64,000 bases of DNA from an uncultured cyanobacterium (GCA_963793265.1 CAWBZI010000001.1:1152001-1216000); one strand, 5' to 3'. Shown: positions 1 to 17,300, numbered from the stretch's first letter. Program-made: numbers and translations. The notes: generated by a model from the sequence alone, not told the origin.

Positions 1-783
1 GGACGAGAATTTCTTAGAGCGCACGACCTGCTTAAGATAGTAGAAAAGAAGGGTAAGGGAAAAAATGCAAAAACAGAGAAGCTACCTTGCTCGTTGAATA
101 CGAACGCACCGTGCGAAATGTGCATCGACTGCTTCACATACGGATTTGCAGCCGGTGGCGGCGGCGCTCAAAAAAGTCGCATTTGGACAGAGGATGCTTT
201 TAGTCTATTGCCAGCCAATGAATTAATAGACGATCGCACTATCAATGGCGTTTATGAAAACGGAACTATGCGATTGCCTCAGCAGGAAGAGGCAAAAGAT
301 AAAGCGTCACAGTCGCTCAATACCAGCGAGTACATAAAACCAGGCGTACATTTTCTAGACGTTGTTACATTCAAAGATTTGACGGCAGACGAGCTAAGGT
401 ACTCGCTTGGAAATATTCTACTGACTACTCGCTACGGAGCAATTTCTAGCCGAACTGGCAGAATGGACAATCAAATTTTGGGAGTATTTGGAGGTTCTAC
501 GGAACTGCCTAGCTCTCTTGAGCTAGTGCAGCAAATATATGACAAGATGTTCGAGAAAGAAGAGCGTTTTGAACATCCTCTAGCACCGAACGCTATTAAG
601 GAAAACACCTTTGGGGTTATCTCTGAATGGGAGAACAGGCGGGGCGTTTCAGTTAGGCTTTCGGAAGTAGAAACAAAGTCGTTAGTTGCAGACGTAGATA
701 GGCATTGGGCAGATGAAGAACGAGCTTCATTTTTAGAGAGACTGGATCAGTCTTACGAACCCTTTCGCAGAATTTCTACATAG
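1..783 (+). CDS. csc2: Type I-D Cas7 (Csc2), 5'-truncated by the window edge
   Basis: Frame is open from base 1 (GREFLRAHDL...). Cys cluster C-x6-CEMCIDC, YGFAAGGGGAQKSR, E-x-IKPG-x-HFLD and RYGAISSR-G motifs are typical of Csc2; lies upstream of csc1. Confidence 0.9.
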   Translation, partial: GREFLRAHDLLKIVEKKGKGKNAKTEKLPCSLNTNAPCEMCIDCFTYGFAAGGGGAQKSRIWTEDAFSLLPANELIDDRTINGVYENGTMRLPQQEEAKDKASQSLNTSEYIKPGVHFLDVVTFKDLTADELRYSLGNILLTTRYGAISSRTGRMDNQILGVFGGSTELPSSLELVQQIYDKMFEKEERFEHPLAPNAIKENTFGVISEWENRRGVSVRLSEVETKSLVADVDRHWADEERASFLERLDQSYEPFRRIST

Positions 784-792
784 GGAGACTTT

Positions 793-1623
793 GTGATGCC
801 GACTATTGAACAAATGGGCTTGAATATAGCAAAAGAGCCTACCGCCCAATTCAAAAAAGCGCGACTCATCGAGATATGGTGCGCTGAGCCTGTCTTCTTC
901 GCATCTAGAGAGATTTCTGATGGTTACTACACAGAAGGCGTACTTGGAAACTACGCCTTAGCTTATGCGCTAGGCTGGGTGTCTTCTCCTTATAGGCTAG
1001 AAGGCAAGGCCGTACACAGACCGTCTTATGTAGAAGACTTAGGGCCAATATCGCGAGATTCGTATATTTTGCCAGCTTGGCCCTCAACTGGGCAGGTAAA
1101 GTTTATATTTGAGCGATTCAACGCCTTATCAGATTCTTACTGGTACGCGATGAGTGCTAACAGAGTTGTAACCGATAGGAAAGCGCTACCAGAGTATAGG
1201 CAACTACAAAAGATAAAAGGAACGCCTACTCCGAAACACCGCTCGTACGCACCTATCAACTTTCCACAGACAGGTCAGATTCGGATGATTGACCGAGGCA
1301 ATCGGTTTCAAACATTAGTATTTGGGAACAGAGAACTTCCAGAGCACTTTCGCATTGGGAAGTTCAGAAGTAAAGTTCAACTTTCGGTACTGGCAGAGTT
1401 TAGCTTGGAATCGCTGCCAGAGGCAGAATACATTTGCATACCCTTACTAAATACCGCTGACCTGCCGTCCAACCTTAAACTCACAGCCTTCGATCTAGTT
1501 TCAGTGCCACCTGCATCACTTTTGAAAAACTTGCGTTTTAAAGGAGAAGCTTGGCGGATTGGAAACTTTGTTGTTCCTGCCCATCTTCAGTTCTGCGGAA
1601 ATCGAGTCTCTCATGAAAAATGA
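793..1623 (+). CDS. csc1: Type I-D Cas5 (Csc1)
   Basis: PVFFASRE, NYALAYALG, NFPQTG and FRIGKFRSK motifs; GGGAG SD upstream; start GTG793 or ATG796. Confidence 0.88.
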   Translation: MMPTIEQMGLNIAKEPTAQFKKARLIEIWCAEPVFFASREISDGYYTEGVLGNYALAYALGWVSSPYRLEGKAVHRPSYVEDLGPISRDSYILPAWPSTGQVKFIFERFNALSDSYWYAMSANRVVTDRKALPEYRQLQKIKGTPTPKHRSYAPINFPQTGQIRMIDRGNRFQTLVFGNRELPEHFRIGKFRSKVQLSVLAEFSLESLPEAEYICIPLLNTADLPSNLKLTAFDLVSVPPASLLKNLRFKGEAWRIGNFVVPAHLQFCGNRVSHEK

Positions 1624-3907
1624 AGCAATAAACATTACGCTTGAGCCAAAAGGCATTGCGGCCTGCACAGATTTGCCACCACAGCTAGCTTTTATGGGTC
1701 GAGCCTTGCAACATCAGGTAGACGTATTCGATAAAGCTGTTAACCACAACATCATCGTTAACTCATCATCTACAGGGACAGGGAAAACTAAAGCAGCATT
1801 CACAGTTCTACTGCATGAGAAAAATAGAAACCGACATGCTATCTATGTTGCGCCAACTAATGCGCTAATTGAACAACAAAAATCAGCCGCAGAGAAATTT
1901 ATAAAACAGGCAGATCTTTCGCATGTTGTCATAGAGGCATCTGCAAAAGATATCAGAAGCTGGCCAAGCGATAGAGTAGGAATACGTCCAGGCGAAAAAA
2001 TCTATAACCTGTTGAGGAATCCGGCCACTATTTTTCCTGAGTTGGGAAGCAATCGGCCCGTTTTGCTCATCACTAATCCAGATATCTTCTACTACGCTAC
2101 CTTCTTTGCCTATCGTCAATTGGATCGCGTAAATATTGCCAGTAAGTTTTATAGCCAGTTCTCGACAGTAATTTTTGATGAGTTTCATCTCTACGATGCC
2201 AAGCAGCTAATTGGACTACTTTTCTACATGGCCCTCTCTCATGAGTTCGGGTACTTCAATCATGGGCGGCGAATAATTTTGCTAACAGCGACACCTGAGC
2301 CTGCCTGCGAGTCAACATTGGAAAGTCTATCTAGGCAAGGCGTCAAAATTGCATATGTCGATGGAGAGTCTACCAGTGAGAACCTACTACCGTCTCAAAC
2401 AACAGTAAATTTGTGCATTCGCCCACAACCCGATAGGGATCAACTAATCTTAGAAATTAGCCGCAAAGTTCAGAGAAACCTGAAAGACAACCCAGATAAC
2501 TACGGTGCCGTTATTCTGGATTCGCTCGATCAAATCAATCAGCTTTCCGACGAGCTACAGAGTAAAGGATTAGGTCGTGAGGTTGGAAGAATAACAGGGC
2601 CATCCCCTTTAGCTGATCGTCAGCGTGCAGCACAGTGCAAAATAATCTTAGCTACTAGCACTGTTGATGTTGGCTTTAATTTTGAGCGAAATCCTACATC
2701 AGAAAGGCAACCTTTGGACTGGATAATCTTTTCTGCCCAAGATCGCGCTGCTTTCTGGCAGCGCATTGGTCGAGTTGGTCGGGTTTTAGGAAGATCGCAA
2801 ACTGATATTTCTTCTGTAGCTACAGCTTACTTACCAGAAAAAGCCTGGGAGCAGAATATAAGTTCGCTTAATGGGTTACAGGGGCGCGAGGCTCTTGAAC
2901 AAAAGCTATTAGAGGTAGATTGTCTCGATCGCCCTTTCCTCTCTGTTTATTGGCAGTCTGAGGCTTTTGTAGAAATCGCTCGGCCTTTTTTGATTCTTGA
3001 AAATATGATGGACGGGTTGGCAGAAAGTGAACTACTATCAAACCTTTATCAGACAATCAAAAACGTTTTGGGTGGAAAGCGTGACTGGAAATACTATAAA
3101 CAAAGAATGCAAGCATTGCAGGCAGCGGAGTCAATAGCACAACATCGCGGCAACGATGCGAAGAACCCACCGCTTAAGTTTATAAAAGGAAATGCTAGAT
3201 GGGCAATAGTGACAGCTTTTCTAAAGGCAGAATGTCCAGAAGACTGGGAAGAGCTGAAAGCGGGAAAGACAAACATAAGGGATTACGAAGAAGTTTTGAG
3301 CGAATCTTCTGAAGCTATTACCGCATTCCGCACCTTTTGCAAGAAATTCAGTGTTAGCTACTCACCCCTTTTTGGTTTTCGTTCTAGCTTGTTCAAAAGT
3401 CTAGATATCAAAGATCCAAGAGGATTTCTGCTAGATGTTTCAGACAAGACTGTGATTGATCCGATCCATCTTCTTCGCTACTACGAGTTCTCTAACGATC
3501 AAGATACGGTTGAATTGGTAAATCGTGCTGCGCAGCCCTATCAGGTAAGCTTTCGACTGAGATATTACGATAACAGCTTGAGCTGGAAGAGCGATCACAT
3601 GAATAAACTTCAGTCATTTGAGAATTGTCATATCGAACGTAGAAGAGACGGCGCTCTTTCACCTACACCGCTTCTATCGAAATTAGAGAGAGAGCTGATT
3701 CCGGGCGCAATTATCTGCCCGGTTGCAAATGCTTATGCCTACTACCAATCGAGAAAGGACAGGATAGTATCTTATCCAATCACTGTAGTTGGAAACAACT
3801 TTGAAAAAGAGTATGTATTTTTTCCTGGGCTTTCAGGAATTTTGACTCTAGCGCTTTATGGCACGCGGCTAAAGCTGCCGGATGAGGAGGAGTTTCTATA
3901 CTTTTAA
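1613..3907 (+). CDS. cas3: Type I-D Cas3' helicase (no HD nuclease domain)
   Basis: SF2 motifs TGTGKT, PTNAL, TNPD, DEFH, TAT, ATSTVDVG and QRIGRVGR; no N-terminal HD domain; ATG1613 overlaps the csc1 end. Confidence 0.9.
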   Translation: MKNEAINITLEPKGIAACTDLPPQLAFMGRALQHQVDVFDKAVNHNIIVNSSSTGTGKTKAAFTVLLHEKNRNRHAIYVAPTNALIEQQKSAAEKFIKQADLSHVVIEASAKDIRSWPSDRVGIRPGEKIYNLLRNPATIFPELGSNRPVLLITNPDIFYYATFFAYRQLDRVNIASKFYSQFSTVIFDEFHLYDAKQLIGLLFYMALSHEFGYFNHGRRIILLTATPEPACESTLESLSRQGVKIAYVDGESTSENLLPSQTTVNLCIRPQPDRDQLILEISRKVQRNLKDNPDNYGAVILDSLDQINQLSDELQSKGLGREVGRITGPSPLADRQRAAQCKIILATSTVDVGFNFERNPTSERQPLDWIIFSAQDRAAFWQRIGRVGRVLGRSQTDISSVATAYLPEKAWEQNISSLNGLQGREALEQKLLEVDCLDRPFLSVYWQSEAFVEIARPFLILENMMDGLAESELLSNLYQTIKNVLGGKRDWKYYKQRMQALQAAESIAQHRGNDAKNPPLKFIKGNARWAIVTAFLKAECPEDWEELKAGKTNIRDYEEVLSESSEAITAFRTFCKKFSVSYSPLFGFRSSLFKSLDIKDPRGFLLDVSDKTVIDPIHLLRYYEFSNDQDTVELVNRAAQPYQVSFRLRYYDNSLSWKSDHMNKLQSFENCHIERRRDGALSPTPLLSKLERELIPGAIICPVANAYAYYQSRKDRIVSYPITVVGNNFEKEYVFFPGLSGILTLALYGTRLKLPDEEEFLYF

Positions 3908-3955
3908 TCTTGTTAAGAAGTCTGCTGACTATCCAAAACGCACTGAAGAATTGCT

Positions 3956-4828
3956 ATGCCCTACAGTCTTGTCCTCAATCTTGTACCGCTCTCTCCAATT
4001 CCCAAAACGCATCTAAGCGGGCGACATTTACACGCGCTGTTTTTGGATTTGGTCAGGTCGCATAACCCGGAGCTAGCAACCATCCTCCACGGCCAAACCA
4101 CCCAGAAAGCCTTTACCCTCAGCCCGCTACAAACCAATATCACCACGCAACAGTCACCCGAAACGCTGCAATGGAGCTATCGAAACGCCATCCCTGCGGG
4201 CTCCTTGTGCTGGTGGCGCATTACATTGCTAGATGACACGCTGTTTGCGCAGCTTGCTCACCTGTGGCTGGGCTTGGATAAACAGCAGCAGTGGCAGCTT
4301 GGGGGCAGTCCGATTCAGGTGACGCGCGTGATTGGGACGCAGCAGTTAGGTCAGCCCTGGGCGGGCTATGTGGGTTATCAGCAGCTTTATGAGCAGGCGA
4401 GCGATCGCACTCGAAAACTCCCTTTTAAGCTATGCACCCCCACTAACTTTCGCATCAGCGACTACGACTCTTCTATGCCAACGCGCGATCGCGTATTCAA
4501 AAGCCTGCTAAAGCGCTGGAACCACTACAGCAACATCCCGTTTGAGCCTGACATTATCAGCCATATCTACCCCGGCGAATACAGCATCCATTCAGAAATC
4601 GCCATCGACAGCCGCAGCAAATTTATCGGCTGTGTTGGCAATCTCTCTTTTAATATTCTGGGTGATCTGATGCCGAGCACGGTTAAACAAATTAACGCGC
4701 TGGCAGCGTTTTCTTTGTATGCAGGCGTCGGACGAAAAACGCCAATGGGTATGGGGCAAACGTTTTATGGTGAGATGAAGGCGAATGCTGTGCCTAAGCC
4801 TAAGCCGAGGCGCAAGGTAGCGGTATGA
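3956..4828 (+). CDS. cas6: CRISPR endoribonuclease Cas6
   Basis: MPYSLVLNL start, GRHLHALF, TPT motif and C-terminal Gly-rich loop YAGVGRKTPMGMG. Confidence 0.95.
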   Translation: MPYSLVLNLVPLSPIPKTHLSGRHLHALFLDLVRSHNPELATILHGQTTQKAFTLSPLQTNITTQQSPETLQWSYRNAIPAGSLCWWRITLLDDTLFAQLAHLWLGLDKQQQWQLGGSPIQVTRVIGTQQLGQPWAGYVGYQQLYEQASDRTRKLPFKLCTPTNFRISDYDSSMPTRDRVFKSLLKRWNHYSNIPFEPDIISHIYPGEYSIHSEIAIDSRSKFIGCVGNLSFNILGDLMPSTVKQINALAAFSLYAGVGRKTPMGMGQTFYGEMKANAVPKPKPRRKVAV

Positions 4829-5403
4829 GTATTCAGTATTTGCCGCTCTCCTATCTCAATGCTTGGGAGTATTGCCATCGCCGCTTTTACTTGGAGTATG
4901 AGCTGGGAGAGATGAAGATAAATGAGCATATTGTGATGGGGACTCATCTGCATCGGAACGTGGATGAGGAAACGGTGCGGCGAGAAGGAGAGACGACGAT
5001 TTATCAGCAGCAGTGGGTGTGGAGCGATCGCCTAAAAATATCCGGTATCATCGACGCCGTAGAAGAAACTCACGGACACCTTGTACCGCTCGAATACAAA
5101 AAAGGGCGCATGGGCAAACACCTGAGCGATCACTTTCAGCTTTGCGGGGCGGCGCTGTGTTTGGAGGAGCGCATGGGGAGAGAGATTGAGTATGGAGAGA
5201 TTTTTTATCATGCCAATCGGCGGCGGGAGCGGGTGATGTTTACTGAGGAATTGCGGGGTAAAACGGAGGCTGCTGTGATGGCAGCGATCACAGCCACCCA
5301 GTCCACCATTCCCGCACCCATCACCCACAAAACCAAATGTAGCGCCTGTAGCCTCACAGAAATTTGCCTACCCAAAGAAGTTCTCGCTTTACAACAATTA
5401 TGA
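4825..5403 (+). CDS. cas4: Cas4 exonuclease
   Basis: YCHRR, G-IID...PLEYKKG nuclease motif, QL, C-terminal CSACSLTEIC Fe-S cysteines; ATGA overlap with cas6. Confidence 0.95.
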   Translation: MSIQYLPLSYLNAWEYCHRRFYLEYELGEMKINEHIVMGTHLHRNVDEETVRREGETTIYQQQWVWSDRLKISGIIDAVEETHGHLVPLEYKKGRMGKHLSDHFQLCGAALCLEERMGREIEYGEIFYHANRRRERVMFTEELRGKTEAAVMAAITATQSTIPAPITHKTKCSACSLTEICLPKEVLALQQL

Positions 5404-6377
5404 CCTCTCTTTACATCACTCAGCCCGACGCCCGGCTCAGCAAAAAATACGAAGCCTTTAAAGTCTCGCTTAAGCAAGAAGATGGCACCTGGAAAAATCA
5501 ATCTGTGCCTGCGCAAACTGTTGAAGAAGTGGTGCTGATGGGCAATCCTTCGGTGACTGGCGATGCGCTGATGTATGCGCTGGAGCTAGGGATGCCGGTG
5601 CACTATCTCTCTCCTTTTGGTAAATACTTAGGGGCGGCGCTGCCAGGACATTCTCGCAACGGACAGCTCAGGCTGGCGCAGTATGGCGCTTACAAGGATG
5701 CTGATGCCAAGCTGACGATTGTGAAGGCGATGGTAACCGCTAAAATTCATAACCAGTATGCGGTGCTGTACCGGCACGGGCAAAAGGAGAATCCCTTAAA
5801 GCTGCGGAAGGCGTTGGTAGCGCAGCAGCATAGCGTGGATCAGGTGCGGGGGATTGAGGGGCTGGCGGCGAGAGAGTATTTTGCGGGGCTTTCGGGGATG
5901 CTGGCGGAGGAGTGGAAGTTTGGGGGGCGCAATCGACGGCCGCCGACTGATCCGGTGAACGCGCTGTTGAGCTTTGGCTATGCGCTGTTGCGAAGCCAGG
6001 TGACTTCGGCGGCGCATATTGCCGGGCTCGATCCTTATGTGGGCTATTTGCATGAGGTGCATCACGGGCAACCGGCGATGGTGCTGGATTTGATGGAGGA
6101 GTTTCGGCCTTTGGTGGCGGATAATGTGGTGCTCGCGACGATCAACAATCGGTCGATTCAGCCGCAGGATTTTACAGAGAGTTTGGGGGCGTACCGGCTG
6201 AGTGACGGGGGGCGGCGGACGTTTTTGCAGGCGTTTGATCGCAAGCTGAACGATACGTTTAAGCATCCAACGTTTGGGTACAAGTGTAGCTACCGAAGAG
6301 CGATCGCACTTCAGGCCCGGCTCTTAGCTAAGCATCTGCAAGAGGGCGTTGTTTACAAGGGTTTGGCGCTGCGATGA
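5400..6377 (+). CDS. cas1: Cas1 integrase (I-D type)
   Basis: RGIEGLAAREYF, RNRRPPTDPVNALLSFGY, GLDPYVGYLH and LDLMEEFRP; ATGA overlap with cas4. Confidence 0.97.
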   Translation: MTSLYITQPDARLSKKYEAFKVSLKQEDGTWKNQSVPAQTVEEVVLMGNPSVTGDALMYALELGMPVHYLSPFGKYLGAALPGHSRNGQLRLAQYGAYKDADAKLTIVKAMVTAKIHNQYAVLYRHGQKENPLKLRKALVAQQHSVDQVRGIEGLAAREYFAGLSGMLAEEWKFGGRNRRPPTDPVNALLSFGYALLRSQVTSAAHIAGLDPYVGYLHEVHHGQPAMVLDLMEEFRPLVADNVVLATINNRSIQPQDFTESLGAYRLSDGGRRTFLQAFDRKLNDTFKHPTFGYKCSYRRAIALQARLLAKHLQEGVVYKGLALR

Positions 6378-6667
6378 CGACGCTCTTTTATCTCATTATT
6401 TACGATTTGCCAGATAGTAAGGCGGCAAATAAGCGGCGCAACCGGCTGCATAAGCTGCTGTCGGGCTATGGCCAATGGACGCAGTACAGTGTGTTTGAGT
6501 GCTTTTTGAATGGGGTGCAGTTTGCGAAGTTGCAAGTGCAGATAGAGCGGCTGATTAAGGTGAATGAGGATTCGGTGCGGGTGTATGTGTTGGATGCGGG
6601 GGCGGTGAAGAAGTCGCTGACGTATGGGTCTGAGCAGCCGAGGCAAGCGTCAGCGATTATTTTGTAG
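6374..6667 (+). CDS. cas2: Cas2
   Basis: YLIIYDL, YGQWTQYSVFEC and EDSVRVY; ATGA overlap with cas1. Confidence 0.96.
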   Translation: MTTLFYLIIYDLPDSKAANKRRNRLHKLLSGYGQWTQYSVFECFLNGVQFAKLQVQIERLIKVNEDSVRVYVLDAGAVKKSLTYGSEQPRQASAIIL

Positions 6668-6731: not shown

Positions 6732-7448
6732 ATGGTTTCTCAACTTTCTAAACTTGCTGAGTCTGAAGTAGCTGACGTTTTCTATCCAGATTCTGATGGT
6801 CAGCCGATGGCAAGCAACACGGAGCAATACCGCTGGATTGTGATGATTCAGCAGAACTTAGACTGGCTTTTGTCGGATGCTTTTGTCGCGGGCGATTTGT
6901 TTTGGTATCCCATTGAAGGCCGTTCGGATGTGTCTGTTGCGCCGGATGTGATGGTGGCTGTTGGAAGGCCGAAAGGAAAAAGGCTTTCTTATAAGCAGTG
7001 GGAAGAAGAGGGTGTTGCGCCACAGGTTATTTTTGAGATCATTTCGCCTAGCAACACTAAACGAGAGATGGATAAAAAGCTGCTTTTCTTTGAGCGTTAT
7101 GGGGTTGAAGAGTATTATCTTTACGACACTGAACGTAACAGTTTGGACGGCTTTTTACGGGGTGAGTTTGGCTTAGAGCATATTGCAGATATGGCTGGCT
7201 GGGTAAGTCCTTTGCTTGATATTCGTTTTGATATGTCGGGCGATGAGCTGACGCTATTTCGTCCGGATGGAACGCCTTTTTTGAGCTATCAAGAGGTTAT
7301 TGAGCAAGCTGAAGTGGCTAAGCAGGAGACTGAAGCGGCTAAGCAGAAGGCTGAAGTGGCTAAGCAAGAAGCTGAAGTGGCTAAGCAGGAGACTATGAAG
7401 CTGGCTGAGAAGCTCAGAGCGCTTGGCGTTGACCCCAATGCTGTATGA
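6732..7448 (+). CDS. Uma2 family (DUF820) putative endonuclease with C-terminal coiled coil
   Basis: YPDSDGQPMA, APDVMV, FEIISPSN, YGVEEYYLYD and a LAEKLRALGVDP tail typical of cyanobacterial Uma2 proteins. Confidence 0.9.
   Translation: MVSQLSKLAESEVADVFYPDSDGQPMASNTEQYRWIVMIQQNLDWLLSDAFVAGDLFWYPIEGRSDVSVAPDVMVAVGRPKGKRLSYKQWEEEGVAPQVIFEIISPSNTKREMDKKLLFFERYGVEEYYLYDTERNSLDGFLRGEFGLEHIADMAGWVSPLLDIRFDMSGDELTLFRPDGTPFLSYQEVIEQAEVAKQETEAAKQKAEVAKQEAEVAKQETMKLAEKLRALGVDPNAV
7308..7391 (+). repeat. 4 x 21-bp tandem repeat encoding heptads (AEVAKQE)
   Basis: gctgaagtggctaagcaggag / actgaagcggctaagcagaag / gctgaagtggctaagcaagaa / gctgaagtggctaagcaggag. Confidence 0.9.
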
Positions 7449-7639
7449 TTTTGGCAAAGCCAAGCGGGGGCGATTTCCCTGGGAGGTTTGCCAAAACGCT
7501 AGAACCTTGATAATTCAATAGCTTTGAGAATTTTAGGGAGGGGCGATCGCGATGAATGTCAGCTATTTTTGCTGGTTTTTATGACCTTTGCCAAAACCCT
7601 CTCTGAGATCGATGTATAGTAAGGGTTCCAAAGGCCGGA
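7449..7639 (+). promoter_or_regulatory. CRISPR leader
   Basis: Non-coding and adjacent to the first perfect repeat; TTTGCCAAAAC at 7487 and 7587, with an inverted copy TTTTGGCAAA at 7449; the degenerate repeat is at the opposite end of the array. Confidence 0.85.
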
Positions 7640-10600
7640 CGCGCCAAACCCAAATCCCGATTACCGGGACTGAAACCTAACGGCTGCCGAGTAGAGCACG
7701 TAAACAACTCATTGCGCGCCAAACCCAAATCCCGATTACCGGGACTGAAACGAATGACGAAGTTTGATTTAGACGACTTTTACAGGCGCGCCAAACCCAA
7801 ATCCCGATTACCGGGACTGAAACTGGACATGTTAGGCATGAGCGCGCTTGACATGGAAGCGCGCCAAACCCAAATCCCGATTACCGGGACTGAAACTTTG
7901 GTGCAAAACGGGCAACACGACGCGCCGGTACATCGCGCCAAACCCAAATCCCGATTACCGGGACTGAAACTTGCTGCTTGAGCCATTAGCAAGTAATCCA
8001 AGTGTCCGCGCCAAACCCAAATCCCGATTACCGGGACTGAAACTACAGCAGTGACTTGACCGACCTTAAGAATCCTGCTTCGCGCCAAACCCAAATCCCG
8101 ATTACCGGGACTGAAACATTTGGCATTCATTACTGCTAATGTATCGCGAACTAAACGCGCCAAACCCAAATCCCGATTACCGGGACTGAAACAGATGCTG
8201 CAGGCTGCACTGCGCAATCGCATCGACTTATCGCGCCAAACCCAAATCCCGATTACCGGGACTGAAACTCAAGACCTTTGCTGTACTCAGCACGGGTTGA
8301 AGCTAAGCGCGCCAAACCCAAATCCCGATTACCGGGACTGAAACTAGCGCTAGGCTCGGTCTATGACAGCGAACGGCTACGGCCGCGCCAAACCCAAATC
8401 CCGATTACCGGGACTGAAACATTACGCGCAACTGCCATCAGATGCACCCAATCAGTCGCGCCAAACCCAAATCCCGATTACCGGGACTGAAACATCTAGC
8501 CGAAGACTTGCCAGCCGCAAGTTCTACTAAGCCGCGCCAAACCCAAATCCCGATTACCGGGACTGAAACATCGTGATGCTGCAGAGACGTTCGCGAGCAA
8601 TCTGAGCGCGCCAAACCCAAATCCCGATTACCGGGACTGAAACACAGCGGCAGTGCTGCAGACGATTGACAGCAGTCGGACCGCGCCAAACCCAAATCCC
8701 GATTACCGGGACTGAAACCGTCGATCGCAAGCTTCGACAGCGTTAAGCCGTATCAACGCGCCAAACCCAAATCCCGATTACCGGGACTGAAACGTTGACT
8801 ACTAGTCTGCAAGCAGCATTCGCTCCGCGTCGCGCCAAACCCAAATCCCGATTACCGGGACTGAAACTTAGCTACTGCTGAACTGCGCACAGGCGAACTG
8901 ACTGGCGCGCCAAACCCAAATCCCGATTACCGGGACTGAAACTCAACGACTGCTAGTCCGCTCAAGTGCCGACTGCACGCGCGCCAAACCCAAATCCCGA
9001 TTACCGGGACTGAAACGCTAGTTGGCTCAGGCTGGTTCGAATACTAGTCGACGCGCCAAACCCAAATCCCGATTACCGGGACTGAAACGATCAGCTGATG
9101 TACGCCGATAGTCGTTGAATCAGCGCGCGCCAAACCCAAATCCCGATTACCGGGACTGAAACGATAGTCGTGACTGTAGCCAGCGATTCAAGCGCGTCGC
9201 GCGCCAAACCCAAATCCCGATTACCGGGACTGAAACTTGCAGCTTGCCAGACTTGAAGGTCAGCTAAATTTTTCGCGCCAAACCCAAATCCCGATTACCG
9301 GGACTGAAACGATCTGCGATCGCACTAGCGCCTCGCCGCGTATCTGTCCGCGCCAAACCCAAATCCCGATTACCGGGACTGAAACAAGCAATCTTCTAGA
9401 CTTCACATCGGAGTTCAATGCTCTCGCGCCAAACCCAAATCCCGATTACCGGGACTGAAACGATGATTGCGAATGTCTGTTAGCTTGATTTGCGACAGCG
9501 CGCCAAACCCAAATCCCGATTACCGGGACTGAAACAACAATCTGCTAGACTTCCAATGCGGGTTCAATGCTGCCGCGCCAAACCCAAATCCCGATTACCG
9601 GGACTGAAACATTAGATGCGCTGTCCGAACTCGCGGAGAGAATCGCAGCGCGCCAAACCCAAATCCCGATTACCGGGACTGAAACGCAGCGGCGTTGCAG
9701 ACTCGACTACGCAAGCGTACAGCGCGCCAAACCCAAATCCCGATTACCGGGACTGAAACGCGTAGGGATAGACGTGGTGCCGACTGCTAATCACCGCGCG
9801 CCAAACCCAAATCCCGATTACCGGGACTGAAACATTCCAGACACTATCAGAGCCGTAGCAAGCGCTGATACGCGCCAAACCCAAATCCCGATTACCGGGA
9901 CTGAAACTCTAGAATAGCGTTATGGATTAGCGCACGTATGCTAACCCGCGCCAAACCCAAATCCCGATTACCGGGACTGAAACCATTGGACACTATCAGA
10001 CTGCGACTGTCAGGTGTCTGTCCGCGCCAAACCCAAATCCCGATTACCGGGACTGAAACACAGTGCTATCAACGTCCGGACTAACGCTGGACAGCAGGCG
10101 CGCCAAACCCAAATCCCGATTACCGGGACTGAAACTTAGCATCGTCAGTGAGCAGTTCCGGCCAAGCCTGTTGCCGCGCCAAACCCAAATCCCGATTACC
10201 GGGACTGAAACATCTGAATCTATTAGACTGTATGTGCTAGGACTGTTAGCGCGCCAAACCCAAATCCCGATTACCGGGACTGAAACTAGACAGACTCGGA
10301 CTGGCTCAGCATCAGCAGCTATCGCGCCAAACCCAAATCCCGATTACCGGGACTGAAACAATCCGAATCACTTTATGCCCTGGGCGCATCTCTTGCCGCG
10401 CCAAACCCAAATCCCGATTACCGGGACTGAAACGGATCTCAGCAGATGGCATTACCGCTGGCCTAGCTACGCGCCAAACCCAAATCCCGATTACCGGGAC
10501 TGAAACACAAACGCAGACAAGCAGCTTAAAATCGCCTGCAAGCGCGCCAAACCCAAATCCCGATTACCGGGACTGAAACATTTGATTCGCTATAGTATCA

Positions 10601-11773
10601 GTCGGCAGGCTTTGATCCGCGCCAAACCCAAATCCCGATTACCGGGACTGAAACATTCGGACAATGCAGCTGATCATAACGAGCTCTAGATTCCGCGCCA
10701 AACCCAAATCCCGATTACCGGGACTGAAACGTGGGTGAGCGTTAGTCATCGCGAGAACGTTTCGATGCCGCGCCAAACCCAAATCCCGATTACCGGGACT
10801 GAAACTGTTCGGCGCTCCAATAACGACTGCCACGCTGACCGCACCCGCGCCAAACCCAAATCCCGATTACCGGGACTGAAACTCCTCTACGACCTCTTCT
10901 AGGGAGATGAGTCGGCTTCGCGCCAAACCCAAATCCCGATTACCGGGACTGAAACATCGACAGCAGCGGCACGATCGGACACATTTTCGATCGCGCCAAA
11001 CCCAAATCCCGATTACCGGGACTGAAACGTCTCAGCAGCATCGGCATTAGCCTCTAGTCTAGCTAGCGCGCCAAACCCAAATCCCGATTACCGGGACTGA
11101 AACGAGCTCTCCAAGATAGACGAGGCACACGACTCGACCCCCGCGCCAAACCCAAATCCCGATTACCGGGACTGAAACATCGCCTCTGCCACCGATAGAG
11201 TATTGCGAACATCCGCGCCAAACCCAAATCCCGATTACCGGGACTGAAACTCATGCGTTTACCTACAGCCGGTACGTATTAGACCTGTCGCGCCAAACCC
11301 AAATCCCGATTACCGGGACTGAAACACGTGCTGAGCTGACCGAGACAGGACGTAGCACTAGAGCGCGCCAAACCCAAATCCCGATTACCGGGACTGAAAC
11401 ACCTCATCCCAATCAGCAATGCAACTGACAGCCAAGGCCGCGCCAAACCCAAATCCCGATTACCGGGACTGAAACCTGCTGAAGGTGTTAGAGCTGAATG
11501 CGCGGGGCGGGCCTTCTGACGCGCCAAACCCAAATCCCGATTACCGGGACTGAAACGAATTAGACCGCTATGAAACAGTCATCCTGTCTAATCGCGCCAA
11601 ACCCAAATCCCGATTACCGGGACTGAAACCACATCGAAGGGCAGCGGCCCCGGTTCGTGAGCCCACGCGCCAAACCCAAATCCCGATTACCGGGACTGAA
11701 AATTTCAACTGCGCTATTGTATGGGGGTAGCAAACACACGCCAAACCCAAATCCTGATTACCGGGAGTAAGTC
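7640..11773 (+). CRISPR. Type I-D CRISPR array: 56 repeats (54 perfect, 1 with a last-base change, 1 degenerate terminal) and 55 spacers of 34-44 nt
   Basis: Repeat CGCGCCAAACCCAAATCCCGATTACCGGGACTGAAAC (37 nt, TCCCG/CGGGA stem, GAAAC 3' end), counted by hand. Repeat 55 (11666-11702) ends GAAAA. Terminal copy 11737-11773 is CACGCCAAACCCAAATCCTGATTACCGGGAGTAAGTC. Confidence 0.99.
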
Positions 11774-11774
11774 G

Positions 11775-12035
11775 ATGAGCCCAGCTTTATCTAAAATGAT
11801 AAACGAGCTAAGTCAGCTCTCGCCTCAAGAACAGTGGACATTGTTAGGATACCTAACAAATCGGTTGCAAGACACTGTTCGCTTAGACGAAGCATCATCT
11901 AAGTTGAAACCTACAACGGAGATGGGGAATGCCCTTTCTATCTTCGAAGAGACTAGAGGAATGTGGGGCAGTAGCAGCCTGACATCAATAGATGACGAAC
12001 TCAGTAGACAAAGGCAAAACGACTGGGGAGAATGA
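11775..12035 (+). CDS. Putative antitoxin (86 aa) of the downstream PIN toxin
   Basis: Small gene; QLSPQEQWTLL and GMW...R-R-DW segments resemble VapC-associated antitoxins; GGGAG lies 7 nt before ATG11775. Confidence 0.7.
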   Translation: MSPALSKMINELSQLSPQEQWTLLGYLTNRLQDTVRLDEASSKLKPTTEMGNALSIFEETRGMWGSSSLTSIDDELSRQRQNDWGE

Positions 12036-12438
12036 GCCCGACATCGCAAAACTAATTTTTGATACTAATATCTTCATCTACCATTTCAACAATCAGCTAG
12101 GCGAGCTAGGAACCGATCTTCTTAAGCAAGGACTGCTGAACTCAGGCGCTTATTCAGTCATTTCAAAAATTGAGGTACTAGGCTTCAAGCAGTCCAAAGC
12201 TGATGATACGAAAGCTCGACAGTTTTTGTCTCAGCTCGTCGAACTACCGCTGACCGCCAAAGTTACAGAACGAACAATTTCAATTCGCCAGAATTTAAAG
12301 ATAAAAACGCCTGATGCCATCATTGCAGCTACAGCAATAGAGCACTCACACCGCCTAGTGACTCGCAACTCAAGTGACTCCAGCAAAATCGAGGATTTAG
12401 ACTGGCTGAATCCTTTCATAGAACAAGACCACTCGTAA
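11992..12438 (+). CDS. vapC: PIN-domain (VapC-like) toxin; start uncertain
   Basis: IFDTN, SVISKIE, PDAIIAATA and LVTRNxxD PIN motifs. Confidence 0.85.
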   Translation: MTNSVDKGKTTGENEPDIAKLIFDTNIFIYHFNNQLGELGTDLLKQGLLNSGAYSVISKIEVLGFKQSKADDTKARQFLSQLVELPLTAKVTERTISIRQNLKIKTPDAIIAATAIEHSHRLVTRNSSDSSKIEDLDWLNPFIEQDHS

Positions 12439-12462
12439 TTGTGATGAATTCGTGTGAAACAT

Positions 12463-12492
12463 TTGACACATCAAAAATACTGCTGATACGCT
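12463..12492 (+). promoter_or_regulatory. Putative sigma70 promoter
   Basis: TTGACA (12463-12468), 18-nt spacer, then TGn-TACGCT extended -10 (12487-12492). Confidence 0.6.
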
Positions 12493-12499
12493 GTATCTT

Positions 12500-12706
12500 A
12501 CGGTTGTTCTCGCAACAACCTAACGACCGTCTTGAAAAAACTAGCCATTGTCGGCGTTGGCTGGAACCCAACACCGACAACTAACCTCTGAACTGATTAG
12601 ACCAGTAAAGAGGCTGTGGGTATCATCCCACAGCCACCCTGGCGCTTGGCAAGTCGGAGTGGCTATTTTTTTCTGGGTTTTCTTCAACCACTCACCCGAA
12701 GAACCC
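12500..12706 (+). ncRNA. Highly structured 5' leader or putative cis-regulatory RNA
   Basis: Hairpins at 12502-12520, 12548-12580, 12612-12635 and 12675-12706; terminator-like stem 12632-12664 followed by T7; long-range TAGCCA/TGGCTA pairing. Confidence 0.55.
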
Positions 12707-13033
12707 ATGAAAATCATGACTTTCACAGCCAATCAACCGCTACAAGCCCGTCCAACAGCTCACCCAGAAACTCGCCAAATTATTACCCAGGCCATCACTC
12801 AATCTGAGCCAACCACCGCCCTACAGCTTTCGTCAAACGGCACCGATCCCGGCGAATCTCTCCGGCATATTTTACTGGGTAGCCCCAGCGCTATCCAACA
12901 GACCATTCACCTACTCCACAAGCTTCACTACGCCGAAACCCTCTTGTGGACACCCATCCTCACCATCGAAGAACCGTTGAACATTACACCTGCGCAAGGC
13001 GAAGCAATCAGCCTGCTCAAAAAGCAAATATAG
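12707..13033 (+). CDS. Small hypothetical protein (108 aa; LRHILLGSPSAIQQTIHLLHKLHYAE...W-P core)
   Basis: ATG12707 is in frame with ORF 12548..13033. The core motif resembles, from memory, a recurrent uncharacterised cyanobacterial family. Confidence 0.7.
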   Translation: MKIMTFTANQPLQARPTAHPETRQIITQAITQSEPTTALQLSSNGTDPGESLRHILLGSPSAIQQTIHLLHKLHYAETLLWTPILTIEEPLNITPAQGEAISLLKKQI

Positions 13034-13043
13034 CCAAAGGTGC

Positions 13044-13081
13044 ATTCGCAGGCTGGCTATAAAACAAACCAGCCTGCGAAT
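13044..13081. terminator. Perfect 13-bp inverted repeat after the small gene
   Basis: ATTCGCAGGCTGG-N12-CCAGCCTGCGAAT; no clean U tract on the + strand. Confidence 0.5.
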
Positions 13082-13618
13082 ACAAACAAATCTAAAACAG
13101 CACTTGACCTGAATACTCGCCCGACTGCCGAGCCCCGTCCGACTCCATATCAGAATACTCACGCGCTGACATCACCTGGCTAGCCACCAGTAGCATCAAC
13201 AGCAGCACAAACGGGATCGATACAAAATTAAACAACAACTTACACCAAGCTTCACTAAAAGAAGACTGATACACAGCGAAACCTCACGAGCAACGAAAAT
13301 TAGGAGCGAAGAGAAGACAAAGCGAAAAGACGAAGCGGCTCCCTTGTGTATTCATTCTCCATGTCATAGATGCCCATAGCCGGACGGTTAGTGACACAAC
13401 CAAAAGTGGTTTGTCACAAATCTTTCAAAAGGTATACGCACGAGGTCGTACAAACCGTACTCAAAGCTTGTTTTTGTATCAGCGGCCACTCTGACTAACA
13501 GCAACAACTTTTACGTATTAGCAGCTAAACGTAAAGGTATCAAGAACTGCATTCGATACCCTTGTATTCGCCCGATCGCGCTGTAAAATCCTTAATAGCT
13601 TGGAAAAAGGACTTGAAA

Positions 13619-14290
13619 ATGCCACTTGACAAGGTTTCTACACTGCTCAGCAGCATCAGCTTAGGATGCTTACTCCTGACGGGCGCGCCTGCTAAGGCCC
13701 AATCAGCCACCATCCATCAGCTCGGCGTCCTCGACAGCGCCGATCCTCAGATGAGTGACGGCAGCTACTTCGACAGCTACGAAATTGCCGGAACCGCCGG
13801 AGAGCGCGTCACCATCTCGCTCAACAGCTCAGAATTCGACACCTTTCTAGGAATCTTAGACAGCGAAGACAATCTGTTAGCCAGCAACGACGACGCCAGC
13901 GACACCAACCGCAACTCATTTATTTCCCTAACCCTACCGGCCAACGGCATTTACACAGTCGTGACCACCACCTTTACCCCCTCAGCCAGCGGCGGCTACC
14001 GGCTCTCCATGCGCAACTTCAACGCGCCGCCCACTACTACTAGCACTACCCAAACCGCCTCATCCGGCCTATCCCCCGTCTTCAATCCCCTCGCCCTGCT
14101 CGCCATTGGGTTCGCACTCGACAGCTTCTTTGGCGGCGGCGGCGGCAGTGCTGATCCCTATCCCGACCCTAGCCAAGACCCGCTCTTACGAGACATGAAC
14201 CGACCCCAACGAAGCGCACCGCTGCCGCCACCCCGGCCCATCCCACCCGTAGGTGGCCCCTGCGGCCTGTATGGCAGCGGGCCTTGCTGA
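13619..14290 (+). CDS. Secreted PPC (pre-peptidase C-terminal) domain protein with Pro/Gly-rich tail
   Basis: Signal-peptide-like LGCLLLTGAPAKAQ; DGSYFDSY..G.AGERVTISL.S.EFDTFL, NDD and LPANGIYTV. Confidence 0.8.
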   Translation: MPLDKVSTLLSSISLGCLLLTGAPAKAQSATIHQLGVLDSADPQMSDGSYFDSYEIAGTAGERVTISLNSSEFDTFLGILDSEDNLLASNDDASDTNRNSFISLTLPANGIYTVVTTTFTPSASGGYRLSMRNFNAPPTTTSTTQTASSGLSPVFNPLALLAIGFALDSFFGGGGGSADPYPDPSQDPLLRDMNRPQRSAPLPPPRPIPPVGGPCGLYGSGPC

Positions 14291-14335
14291 AGTAGTCCCA
14301 AAGCTATCGACGTTGCGAGCAGTATTCAGAGGCAA

Positions 14336-17300
14336 TCATGATGCAGAATGCTGCTTGAGCACGTCTTTTAGATATTTGCCTGTGTAAGAAGCTTCCACCT
14401 CAGCGACTTCCTCGGGTGTGCCCTCAGCAATAATTTCGCCACCGCGATCGCCCCCCTCAGGCCCTAAGTCAATCACCCAGTCACAGCACCGAATCATATC
14501 CAAGTTGTGCTCAATCATAATCACCGAATTACCCTTATCCACTAGGCGCTGCACCACATCTAGCAGCTTGTGCACATCATAAAAAGAGAGTCCAGTCGTC
14601 GGCTCATCAATTAAATACAGCGTTTTACCCGTAGACCTGCGCGCCAGCTCGCTTGCCAGCTTCATCCGCTGCGCCTCACCACCTGAAAGCGTCGGCGCAG
14701 TTTGGCCCAGGCGCACATAGCCTAAGCCCACATCCACCATCGTCTGCAACCGGCTCGCCGCCTTCGGAATGTTCTCAAAAAAGGTCAGCGCCTCTTCAGC
14801 CGTGGTATGCAGCACATCCGAGATATTCTTCGCCTTGTACTTTACCTGAAGCGTCTCACGGTTGTAGCGCGCGCCCTTGCACACCTCACACTCCACATAC
14901 ACATCTGGTAAAAAGTTCATTTCAATGACATTCACACCCTGCCCGCCGCAGGCTTCACAGCGCCCGCCCTTCACATTGAACGAAAACTGCCCGCGCTTAT
15001 AGCCCCGCGCCTTCGCCTCAATTGTCTCGGTGTACAAATCGCGCACCACGTCAAAAATGCCGGTATACGTCGCCGGGTTAGAGCGTGGCGTCCGCCCAAT
15101 CGGAGACTGGTCGATCACAATTGCCTTGTCTAGCGCCTTGAGTCCTTTAATCGGCTCCATCTCTTTAGGCTCAGGAATTTTGCTGCCAAAGAAGTGACGA
15201 ATCGCCGGATACAACAGATCGTTAATTAACGTCGATTTGCCCGATCCCGACACGCCCGTAATGCAAACAAACTTGCCCAGCGGAATATCCACATCAACAT
15301 TCTGCAAGTTGTTGCGGTGCGCGTTGCGAATTTGAATACTGCGCCCGTTCCCTGCTCTGCGCTCAGTCGGCGTGGCAATCTTTTTACGCCCCGATAGATA
15401 TGCCCCGGTCAGCGATTCCTCCGAGTTCAAAATGTCTTCTAGCTGGCCTTGGGCGACAATATTGCCGCCGTGAATTCCCGCCCCAGGGCCAATATCCACA
15501 ATGTAGTCCGCCGCTCGCATGGTGTCTTCATCGTGCTCCACCACCACCAGCGTATTGCCCAGCTCCTTCAGCCGATCCAGCGTCTTCAGCAGGCGATCGT
15601 TGTCTCGTTGGTGCAAGCCAATGCTCGGCTCGTCAAGCACATACAGCACGCCGCTCAGGCCCGCGCCAATCTGCGTCGCCAGTCGAATCCGCTGCGCTTC
15701 GCCACCCGAAAGCGTTCGCGCCGTTCTGTCTAGCGTGAGGTAGTCCAGCCCGACATCAAGTAAAAAGGTCAGCCGCGCCTTAATCTCTTTGAGCACCAGT
15801 TCACCAATGGCAATTTGGCGGTTTGTTAGCTTAGGCGCTTCGCCATTTTCACCCACCAGCTCGAAGACGCGATCGCGACATTCCCGAATCGAAACGCTGG
15901 TAAAATCCTTAATGTTATAAGGCCCAATCTTCACCGCCAAAGACTCCGGCTTCAGCTTCGCCCCATGGCAGGTTTCGCAGGGCTGATCGATCAAATACTT
16001 CTCTAGCTTTTGCTTATAGGTATCTGACGAAGACTCCTGATACTGCCTTTGCAACATCGGCAATACGCCCTCATAGCGGCGATGATAGCCCTTCTGCGTG
16101 CCGTAGCGAGAATCCGTTTCGATGTAGATTTTCTCTTTAGAGCCGTGCAAAATCGTGTGCATCTGCTCCTTTTCGAGCGTTTGCCACTGCGACTGTAGCT
16201 CGAAGCCAAACGCCTGACCCACGCTGTAGAGCAAAGAGAAATAGTAGGTATTGTCCTTTTCTGACCAGGGGGCGATCGCGGCATACACAGGCGCAGTCAA
16301 ATCAGGCACCACCAGCTCCGCCGAAAACCGCCGCAGGCTCCCCAAACCATGACAGTCCGGGCAGGCCCCATAGGGTGAGTTAAACGAAAACAAACGCGGC
16401 GATAGCTCATCCATCACCGCCCCGTGCTCAGGGCAGGCAAAATTCTCAGAGAAAATCAGCTCATCCGGCAGCGCGTTCTCAGGCTGCTCTTTCTTAGCGT
16501 CTCCCGAATCGTCCTTTCTTGCAGGCAAAATATCAATAATCGCGATTCCATCCGACCGACTCAGCGCTGTGGTCAGCGAATCCACCAGCCGCTCCTGCAA
16601 ATCGTCCTTTTTCACCAGACGATCAACCACCACCTCAATATCGTGCGTCTTATTCTTATCCAGCTCGATATTATCGCCCAGCTCACGCGCCTCTTTGTTA
16701 ATGCGCACCCGCACAAAGCCCTCAGCCGCCAACGCCGACAGCAGCTTTTGATGCGTTCCCTTTTTCCCACGCACCACAGGCGCTAAAATCTGAAACCGCG
16801 TTTTATCCGGCAGCTCCATCACCTGATCGACCATTTGATCGATGCTCTGTGGCGCAATCGATCTGTCGCACACTGGGCAATGCGGCTGACCAGCTCGGCC
16901 ATACAGCAAACGAAAATAGTCATAGATCTCCGTTACCGTACCCACCGTCGAACGCGGGTTATGCGAGGTTGACTTTTGATCGATCGAAATCGCCGGGCTC
17001 AGGCCCTCAATTGCATCTACATCCGGCTTGTCCACCTGGCCCAAAAACTGCCGGGCGTAGGCACTCAGCGACTCCACATAGCGCCTTTGCCCTTCGGCAA
17101 AAATCGTATCGAACGCCAGCGACGACTTACCCGAGCCCGAAACCCCGGTAAACACAATCATCTTGTCACGCGGCAAATCAAGGCTAATATCCTTGAGGTT
17201 GTGCTGCCGCGCGCCGCTAATACGGATCAGGTTCTTAGTATCAGAAAGATCCAGGTCACCACCCGCCAAACCTATCGGCGCATCAACGTGAGCAGCGGGC

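Follow-up and report, generated by a model that had tools for sequence, protein, structure and literature searches.

A VapBC-type toxin-antitoxin pair fused to the terminal repeat of a type I-D CRISPR array in an uncultured cyanobacterium

In a stretch of 64,000 nucleotides (nt) from the genome of an uncultured cyanobacterium (GCA_963793265.1 CAWBZI010000001.1:1152001-1216000; hereafter the window), the last repeat of a CRISPR array ends 1 nt before the ATG of an antitoxin gene, which is followed by a gene for a PIN-domain toxin. The locus raises the question of whether the joining of an array to a protein toxin-antitoxin (TA) pair represents a regulatory device or an accident of gene order. 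An earlier note on this DNA had proposed a device, in which the terminal repeat supplies the ribosome-binding site of the pair, the TA mRNA is the tail of the precursor CRISPR RNA (pre-crRNA), and Cas6 gates its translation. On balance, we consider it probable that an ordinary VapBC cassette has become fused to the end of a type I-D array and is transcribed mainly by read-through, with the Shine-Dalgarno (SD)-like motif in the repeat arising as a by-product, and that the pair is at most an ordinary addiction module. The layout of the locus is confirmed and out of the ordinary. It does not, however, provide evidence of a new system, and the fusion was probably accidental.

The terminal repeat was compared with the consensus of the array, and was found to differ from it at repeat positions 2, 19, 31, 33, 35 and 36. 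These differences are concentrated in the last 8 nt (4/8, against 2/29 in positions 1-29; Fisher p=0.013), which bears out the altered 3' handle described in the earlier note. The five base pairs of the hairpin (16-30 to 20-26) all persist, one G-C pair having become G-U (-5.3 vs -7.3 kcal/mol), as had been claimed for the C>T change, and the pair probability of the hairpin in a context of 40 nt on either side is 0.96, which ranks 19 of 56 from the lowest among the repeats of the array. A kept hairpin with a diverged handle is, however, expected of any terminal repeat, because the hairpin finishes the last CRISPR RNA (crRNA) while the handle serves no spacer. The divergence could reflect either drift in the terminal repeat or a recombination breakpoint at the edge of the cassette, as the same pattern would be left by both; the last 8 nt match the repeat handle at 4/8 positions and the most similar leaders of related cassettes at about 5/8 (by eye).

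Inspection of the sequence also agreed with the earlier description of the SD-like motif GGGAG, its location within the hairpin stem, and the 1-nt gap between the end of the repeat and the antitoxin ATG at 11775 (Table 1). As GGGA occurs in all 56 repeats, one substitution (C31>G) suffices to create the pentamer. The GGAG core (11764-11767) lies within the 5-9 nt before the ATG that are usual for an SD sequence; however, GGGAG is mostly paired in models of the uncleaved RNA (mean unpaired probability 0.13-0.22), and the leaders of related cassettes are varied and share no common SD. The type I-D Cas6-1 described in PMC5741207 cuts a 37-nt repeat at G29/A30, 8 nt from its end, and needs a stable hairpin. 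The window encodes a Cas6; its repeats are 37 nt long, with a hairpin on the 3' side and a handle of 8 nt, and their G29 and A30 are positioned as in the repeat of that study. The cut is predicted to map to 11765/11766, inside GGGAG, as the earlier note had argued from a cut 8 nt from the repeat end. Because the motif is mostly paired and would be split by this cut, its use as a ribosome-binding site would be limited to RNA that has escaped both binding and cutting by Cas6.

The upstream regions of related cassettes were examined for transcription signals, and a TAnAAT box was found at -60 to -30, mostly at -42 to -46, in 17 of 22 distinct regions. This family -10 box, and with it the own, usually autoregulated promoter expected of a VapBC pair, is absent upstream of the pair in the window, where the only TAnnnT, a form of the -10 box, within 70 nt upstream of the ATG is TATTGT at -60. 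No terminator-like site was found on the + strand in 7576-13500, so none lies between the array and the pair, and a scan with the sigma-70 consensus identified no + strand promoter-like site over the last spacer. The contention that there is no room for a separate promoter or terminator holds for the 1-nt gap, but a promoter could sit in the last spacer. As the array end replaces the promoter region of the family, the pair is most likely transcribed by read-through from the array. The intact hairpin of the terminal repeat would be part of the mRNA leader in any case. In all three Synechocystis arrays, cleavage of the final repeat takes place at the usual position, and in two of them transcripts pass the last repeat (PMC3575380). 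With the missing -10 box and the lack of a terminator, this precedent makes both array-driven transcription and Cas6 cutting in the leader plausible. As far as transcription is concerned, the proposed origin of the TA mRNA from the pre-crRNA tail is thus plausible, whereas the proposed Cas6 gate found no support. Since both genes would be on one mRNA, cleavage by Cas6 would cause no obvious shift in the toxin:antitoxin ratio.

A word-based protein search with the antitoxin returned no match besides itself, and its family emerged by a full HMMER search, which identified 20 clusters at E<=1e-3; every one of these hits aligns from residue 1-4. Met1 is invariant in 18/18 aligned family members, and ATG 11775 is therefore taken as the right start, as the relatives all begin at the matching Met. 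A longer antitoxin open reading frame (ORF) from the in-frame upstream ATG at 11721 was ruled out by the homologue starts (HMMER 20/20; alignment 18/18). The antitoxin retains all invariant positions of its family, and domain and structure searches found no Pfam family, no solved relative and no recognised DNA-binding domain. A homologous ORF of 79-112 amino acids (aa), mostly 86-91 aa, was found upstream of the toxin and ending at its start in 18/18 close loci. By these comparisons, the antitoxins form an uncharacterised family that is always paired with the same VapC clade.

The toxin matches PF01850 with 44.2 bits against a cut-off of 23.6, and its nearest relatives (about 65% identity, 126 aa) are from Leptolyngbya-like cyanobacteria. 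In the alignment of relatives, the acidic PIN positions D24, E61 and D129 are invariant and D108 is nearly so, and all four, presumed to be the catalytic residues, are kept in the window toxin. A model of the antitoxin-toxin complex scored 0.81, against 0.00 for the best control, with a contact agreement between runs of at least 93% and a predicted local distance difference test (pLDDT) score of at least 71 for the partner. The mark applied to the score is reached by 116/157 solved complexes and 2/215 mismatched pairs, counts that hold only roughly here as own alignments were used, and likeness to the VapBC complexes already solved may contribute to the pass. In the model, the C-terminal third of the antitoxin (residues 49-86) lies over the active-site face of the PIN domain, which supports binding of the toxin by the antitoxin. 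The sequences show that the pair genuinely belongs to a conserved family of VapB-like/VapC (PIN) type II cassettes found in cyanobacteria.

The start of the toxin gene departs from this family. Homology to the 126-aa relatives starts at codon 19 (12046), where the GTG or ATG start of the family is replaced by GCA. All nine aligned VapC relatives use ATG or GTG, P0036 having one extra residue ahead, and in relatives the toxin start lies about a dozen nt past the antitoxin stop. The only in-frame ATG in the window toxin (11992) is 54 nt upstream of the family start, inside the antitoxin gene and without an SD, and its use would add 18 residues and produce an overlap of 44 nt with the antitoxin gene. 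This leaves ATG 11992, or else a non-canonical codon, as the start of the toxin, which may attenuate it.

The limits of the cassette were located by comparison with the flanking sequence. At its left edge at most 9 nt are not clearly derived from the repeat, and at its right edge the promoter-like block of the next gene begins 2 nt after the toxin stop (12438). With both edges tight, the cassette consists of nearly bare reading frames, with the array end on one side and the next promoter on the other. Only one copy of the pair is present in its own genome, and it has a G+C content of 0.43-0.45, against 0.51 for the genome, and no DNA-level match to the TA coding part was found in the 40 other genomes searched. 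In the genome G020 of the same genus, the syntenic site consists of the leader, one repeat, 242 unrelated nt and the downstream block seen in the window; nothing of the TA pair is recognisable there. In genome G008, cas2, the Uma2-family gene, the leader and one repeat are followed by unrelated DNA. A CRISPR-like array was found near VapC homologues in 1 of 80 loci (within 4 kb on either side), and in that locus, which carries a distant relative, three repeats lie 2 kb away. Among the eight metagenome loci of the antitoxin family, which came from a scan with a 6-row antitoxin alignment, none has a CRISPR-like array within 3 kb on either side. The TA family is therefore not linked to CRISPR elsewhere (1/80 and 0/8 loci). 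Nothing shows that the arrangement evolved as the addiction or anti-anti-CRISPR device envisaged in the earlier note.

Contigs carrying the pair were found in public DNA runs of two studies. One begins inside the terminal repeat (11739) and reaches 13100 with 3 differences, and a contig from the second study (run X2; 251 nt, depth 3) spans 11735-11973 with 1 difference. The only listed difference inside the pair is at 12149, in the contig of a third run. In the X2 contig, the 12 letters before 11735 are unlike the end of the last spacer of the window (11723-11736), and the last spacer in X2 is therefore a different one, which suggests that the trailer end of the array turns over between strains. 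The junction was seen in one lineage only, in which it is present in two metagenome strain variants.

If the pair is an ordinary cassette at an array end, it would be transcribed mainly by pre-crRNA read-through, possibly aided by a weak spacer-borne promoter, and Cas6 would cut the terminal repeat at G29/A30 as it would any last repeat, freeing a TA mRNA that has a leader of 9 nt and lacks an SD. Antitoxin translation would be largely SD-independent, as for the relatives, and GGGAG and the diverged 8-nt handle would be by-products of the GGGA of the repeat combined with handle drift or a recombination junction. Any role of the module would be the ordinary one of stabilising (addiction) the CRISPR-cas island, possibly with a toxin attenuated by the loss of its start codon. 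Several points weigh against this account. Read-through, Cas6 cutting and translation are all inferred, and the silence of the promoter scan over the last spacer means little, as the same scan also missed the leader promoter. The 7 nt between GGAG and the ATG are close to the ideal distance, although nothing would require this of a pure by-product. The X2 contig, though short and of depth 3, hints that the repeat-ATG junction outlived spacer turnover and was possibly kept by selection, and the lost toxin start codon may mean that the module is decaying rather than stabilising.

The pair could instead use a newly recruited promoter of its own in the last spacer, with TATTGT as the -10 box and a transcription start site near 11727, in which case transcription would be independent of the array and the terminal repeat would be part of the 5' leader. 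TATTGT fits TAnnnT, a form that occurs nowhere else within 70 nt upstream of the ATG, and cryptic promoters in spacers are recognised (PMC10883916). However, there is no -35-like hexamer at 16-18 nt from it and the site is below the scan threshold, the second strain variant has another spacer but the same junction, and a leader starting from TATTGT would still include the Cas6 hairpin. We regard this explanation as unlikely, if worth keeping in view. A decaying remnant, in which a silent or harmless module is joined to the array by the scar of a deletion or insertion, would account for the replacement of the family start by GCA, with the one upstream ATG lacking an SD, for the lost promoter region, and for a single-copy pair of lower G+C content that is absent from relatives. 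Yet both frames are intact, the acidic PIN positions and all the invariant antitoxin positions are retained, the complex model passes, and the contigs of the two studies differ over the pair at very few positions; decay is thus judged improbable.

The model of the earlier note is that of an evolved device, in which binding or cleavage by Cas6 masks or removes the SD so that TA translation reports on CRISPR processing. It is consistent with a terminal hairpin that is as stable in its context as those of working repeats, with the predicted cut inside GGGAG, with the missing family promoter, and with the presence of the junction in strain variants from two studies. Precedents also exist, as a non-CRISPR RNA that carries just one repeat-like motif (ncRNA60, PMC4041471) can be processed by Cas6 and other couplings of CRISPR and TA systems are known, namely CreTA (PMC9458426) and Cas13a-HicAB (PMC13448076). 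Set against this, the arrangement occurs in a single lineage, the TA family has no CRISPR link elsewhere, the syntenic site in the same genus is without a TA pair, the relatives are translated without a conserved SD, and the state of the hairpin and handle is that expected of any terminal repeat. The toxin has also lost the start codon of its family, and cutting the leader of a shared mRNA would alter both partners together, which provides no clear logic for killing. Although biochemically possible, a device of this kind finds no support in the comparison with relatives and is considered quite improbable. We give similarly little credence to the further idea that TA expression is hard-wired to the array, with the mRNA existing only as the 3' tail of the pre-crRNA that is freed by Cas6, and the pair serving as a protein-based addiction module that guards array transcription and processing. 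If this were the case, silencing or deletion of the leader or array, or loss of Cas6, would stop or alter antitoxin synthesis and free the PIN toxin.

The array itself and the genes preceding it are listed in Table 1. Over the 25-nt 3' part, 54 of the 56 repeats are identical, and the penultimate repeat (11666-11702) ends with A rather than C. The order of cas genes and leader, the GAAAC repeat end, and the decay at the far end identify the repeat next to the antitoxin gene as the trailer-end repeat. The possibility that the pair is trapped inside a longer array was ruled out, as no repeat copy (up to 3 mismatches in 25 nt) is present beyond 11773. The same genome has two more arrays, whose repeats are related to those of the window and whose leaders are similar. 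One, with at least 26 repeats (C1:1145002-1146943), is 5 kb upstream of the window and ahead of a WYL regulator gene, and the other, with 11 repeats (C6:456714-457486), lies on a different contig, where a DNA methyltransferase-like gene comes after it. CTGAAAC is retained in the last repeat of both, and no TA pair lies behind either of them. Within the array of the window, the spacers at 9389-9424 and 9538-9573, which are two units apart, are ~78% identical, and the 73-nt spacer+repeat units containing them are 89% identical. These spacers look like variant copies of one protospacer, as would be given by repeated or primed acquisition from related invaders.

Genes for cas proteins were called from Pfam and NCBIfam matches above the curated cut-offs, and the locus at the window start appears to be a complete type I-D CRISPR-Cas locus. 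The signature models TIGR03157, TIGR03159, TIGR03158 and TIGR04093 (csc2, csc1, cyano-type cas3' and cas1d) all score above their cut-offs. An 889-aa ORF directly upstream of csc2, outside the window, has a weak HD match (E 0.0075, below the cut-off) and no NCBIfam match, and is presumed to be cas10d; the WYL regulator gene mentioned above is also found just upstream of the window. The solved structures nearest to Cas6 are the Cas6B/Cas6A chains 4c98/4c97, and it is expected to be the enzyme that cuts the array repeats. The end of the Uma2-family gene (7291-7394) contains four to five tandem 21-nt units encoding an AEVAKQE-like heptad repeat, and the orthologue in G008 carries a different repeat at the gene end.

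Table 1. Features of the CRISPR-TA junction and of the surrounding part of the window
Feature	Coordinates	Strand	Details
Degenerate terminal repeat	11737..11773	+	Hairpin 11752-11766 kept; predicted Cas6 cut 11765/11766
SD-like GGGAG	11763..11767	+	7 nt before ATG; 4/5 bases in hairpin stem
Antitoxin gene, 86 aa	11775..12035	+	HMMER family; no Pfam family
PIN/VapC toxin ORF, 148 aa from only in-frame ATG	11992..12438	+	PF01850 3.4e-11
Last spacer	11703..11736	+	34 nt, shortest of array; contains TATTGT 11715-11720
CRISPR array	7640..11773	+	56 repeats of 37 nt, spacers 34-44 nt
CRISPR leader	7449..7639	+	70% identity to leader-like stretch of same-genus genome G020
Promoter-like and leader block of next gene	12440..12707	+	78% identity to G020
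Type I-D cas genes	1..6667	+	Pfam/NCBIfam matches
csc2/cas7d	1-783	+	Truncated by window start
csc1/cas5d	793-1623	+	
cas3' helicase	1559-3907	+	
cas6	3956..4828	+	290 aa; CRISPR_Cas6_N 4.6e-58, CRISPR_Cas6 3.2e-18
cas4	4825-5403	+	
cas1d	5364-6377	+	
cas2	6374-6667	+	
Uma2-family gene	6732-7448		Between cas2 and leader

The block that follows the pair contains TTGACA (12463-12468) and TACGCT (12487-12492) separated by an 18-nt gap, two strong hairpins (12547-12581 and 12612-12635) and a T-run (about 12666-12672), after which there is a small conserved ORF (12708-13033). The first ~80 nt of the block recur at other loci of several genomes of the same genus, and one more copy is present in the same genome (C5:389896-389972). 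The block could combine a shared promoter/operator with either a structured leader or a small RNA; an Rfam search of 7000-14500 at E<=1 identified no family. At the syntenic site in G020 (L009 1031-1258), the leader and its single orphan repeat have a flavin-reductase-like gene on one side and the conserved downstream block on the other. The site has no cas genes or array and may be either a remnant of a locus since lost or an attachment site that is empty.

The closest kind of system is the VapBC module of cyanobacterial defence islands, of which this locus is an unusual member. On the CRISPR plasmid pSYSA of Synechocystis 6803 (PMC4963859), which has many TA pairs, a small antitoxin gene followed by a PIN toxin gene is likewise found beside CRISPR-cas, and the role proposed is to stabilise the island, as suggested here. 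The pSYSA pairs are listed in that source with their own mapped transcription start sites, whereas in the window the family promoter is missing and the gene begins 1 nt after a repeat, and the antitoxin belongs to a family without a Pfam model.

The locus resembles CreTA (PMC9458426; PMC12737573) in the unusual use of a degenerate repeat, in a presumed dependence on Cas6 processing, and in the idea of addiction to cas genes. However, as described there, the toxin of CreTA is an RNA, and Cascade is directed by a crRNA-like antitoxin to repress the toxin promoter, while in the window both partners are proteins, no second repeat is present beyond 11773, and no targeting by Cascade is implied. A CreTA antitoxin would also be expected to lie between repeats and to match the toxin promoter in part. 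The locus is not CreTA, from which the earlier note had also set it apart. RNA-only CreTA guards Cascade, whereas the module in the window, if hard-wired, would guard array transcription and processing.

In the Cas13a-HicAB 'CCTA' loci (PMC13448076), a protein type II TA pair is also interleaved with an array, which in that case lies between hicA and hicB. Those loci combine type VI with HicAB, are coupled by protein-protein and crRNA-protein interactions, and occur in several genomes, whereas the locus in the window combines type I-D with VapBC in a single lineage, with no interaction known. The type I TA modules of Clostridium difficile (PMC5961336) also lie directly beside arrays, and a functional link was suggested. 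They differ in having antisense RNA, convergent transcripts of their own and co-regulation by Sigma B, and in that their co-localisation with arrays is conserved in >2,500 genomes. In Sulfolobus, Cas6 cuts a lone repeat-like hairpin situated upstream of ncRNA60, which is not a spacer RNA (PMC4041471), though the product is a non-coding RNA that is loaded into Csm and not an mRNA. A literature search, with subscription papers outside its coverage, turned up no account of Cas6 processing, releasing or gating the mRNA of a protein TA pair, and the excerpted passages of a 2025 review (PMC12737573) make no mention of co-transcription, VapC/VapBC or terminal repeats.

TA modules beside CRISPR-cas genes are common, but wiring of such modules to immunity is known in few cases (CreTA and Cas13a-HicAB). 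The locus described here is a natural construct in which a protein TA pair without a promoter of its own has a predicted Cas6 substrate as its leader, and it makes testable whether CRISPR transcription or processing controls a type II TA pair. If there is no such control, the locus still shows that array ends can capture and drive neighbouring genes, which bears on the annotation of array trailers and of 'terminal repeats'.

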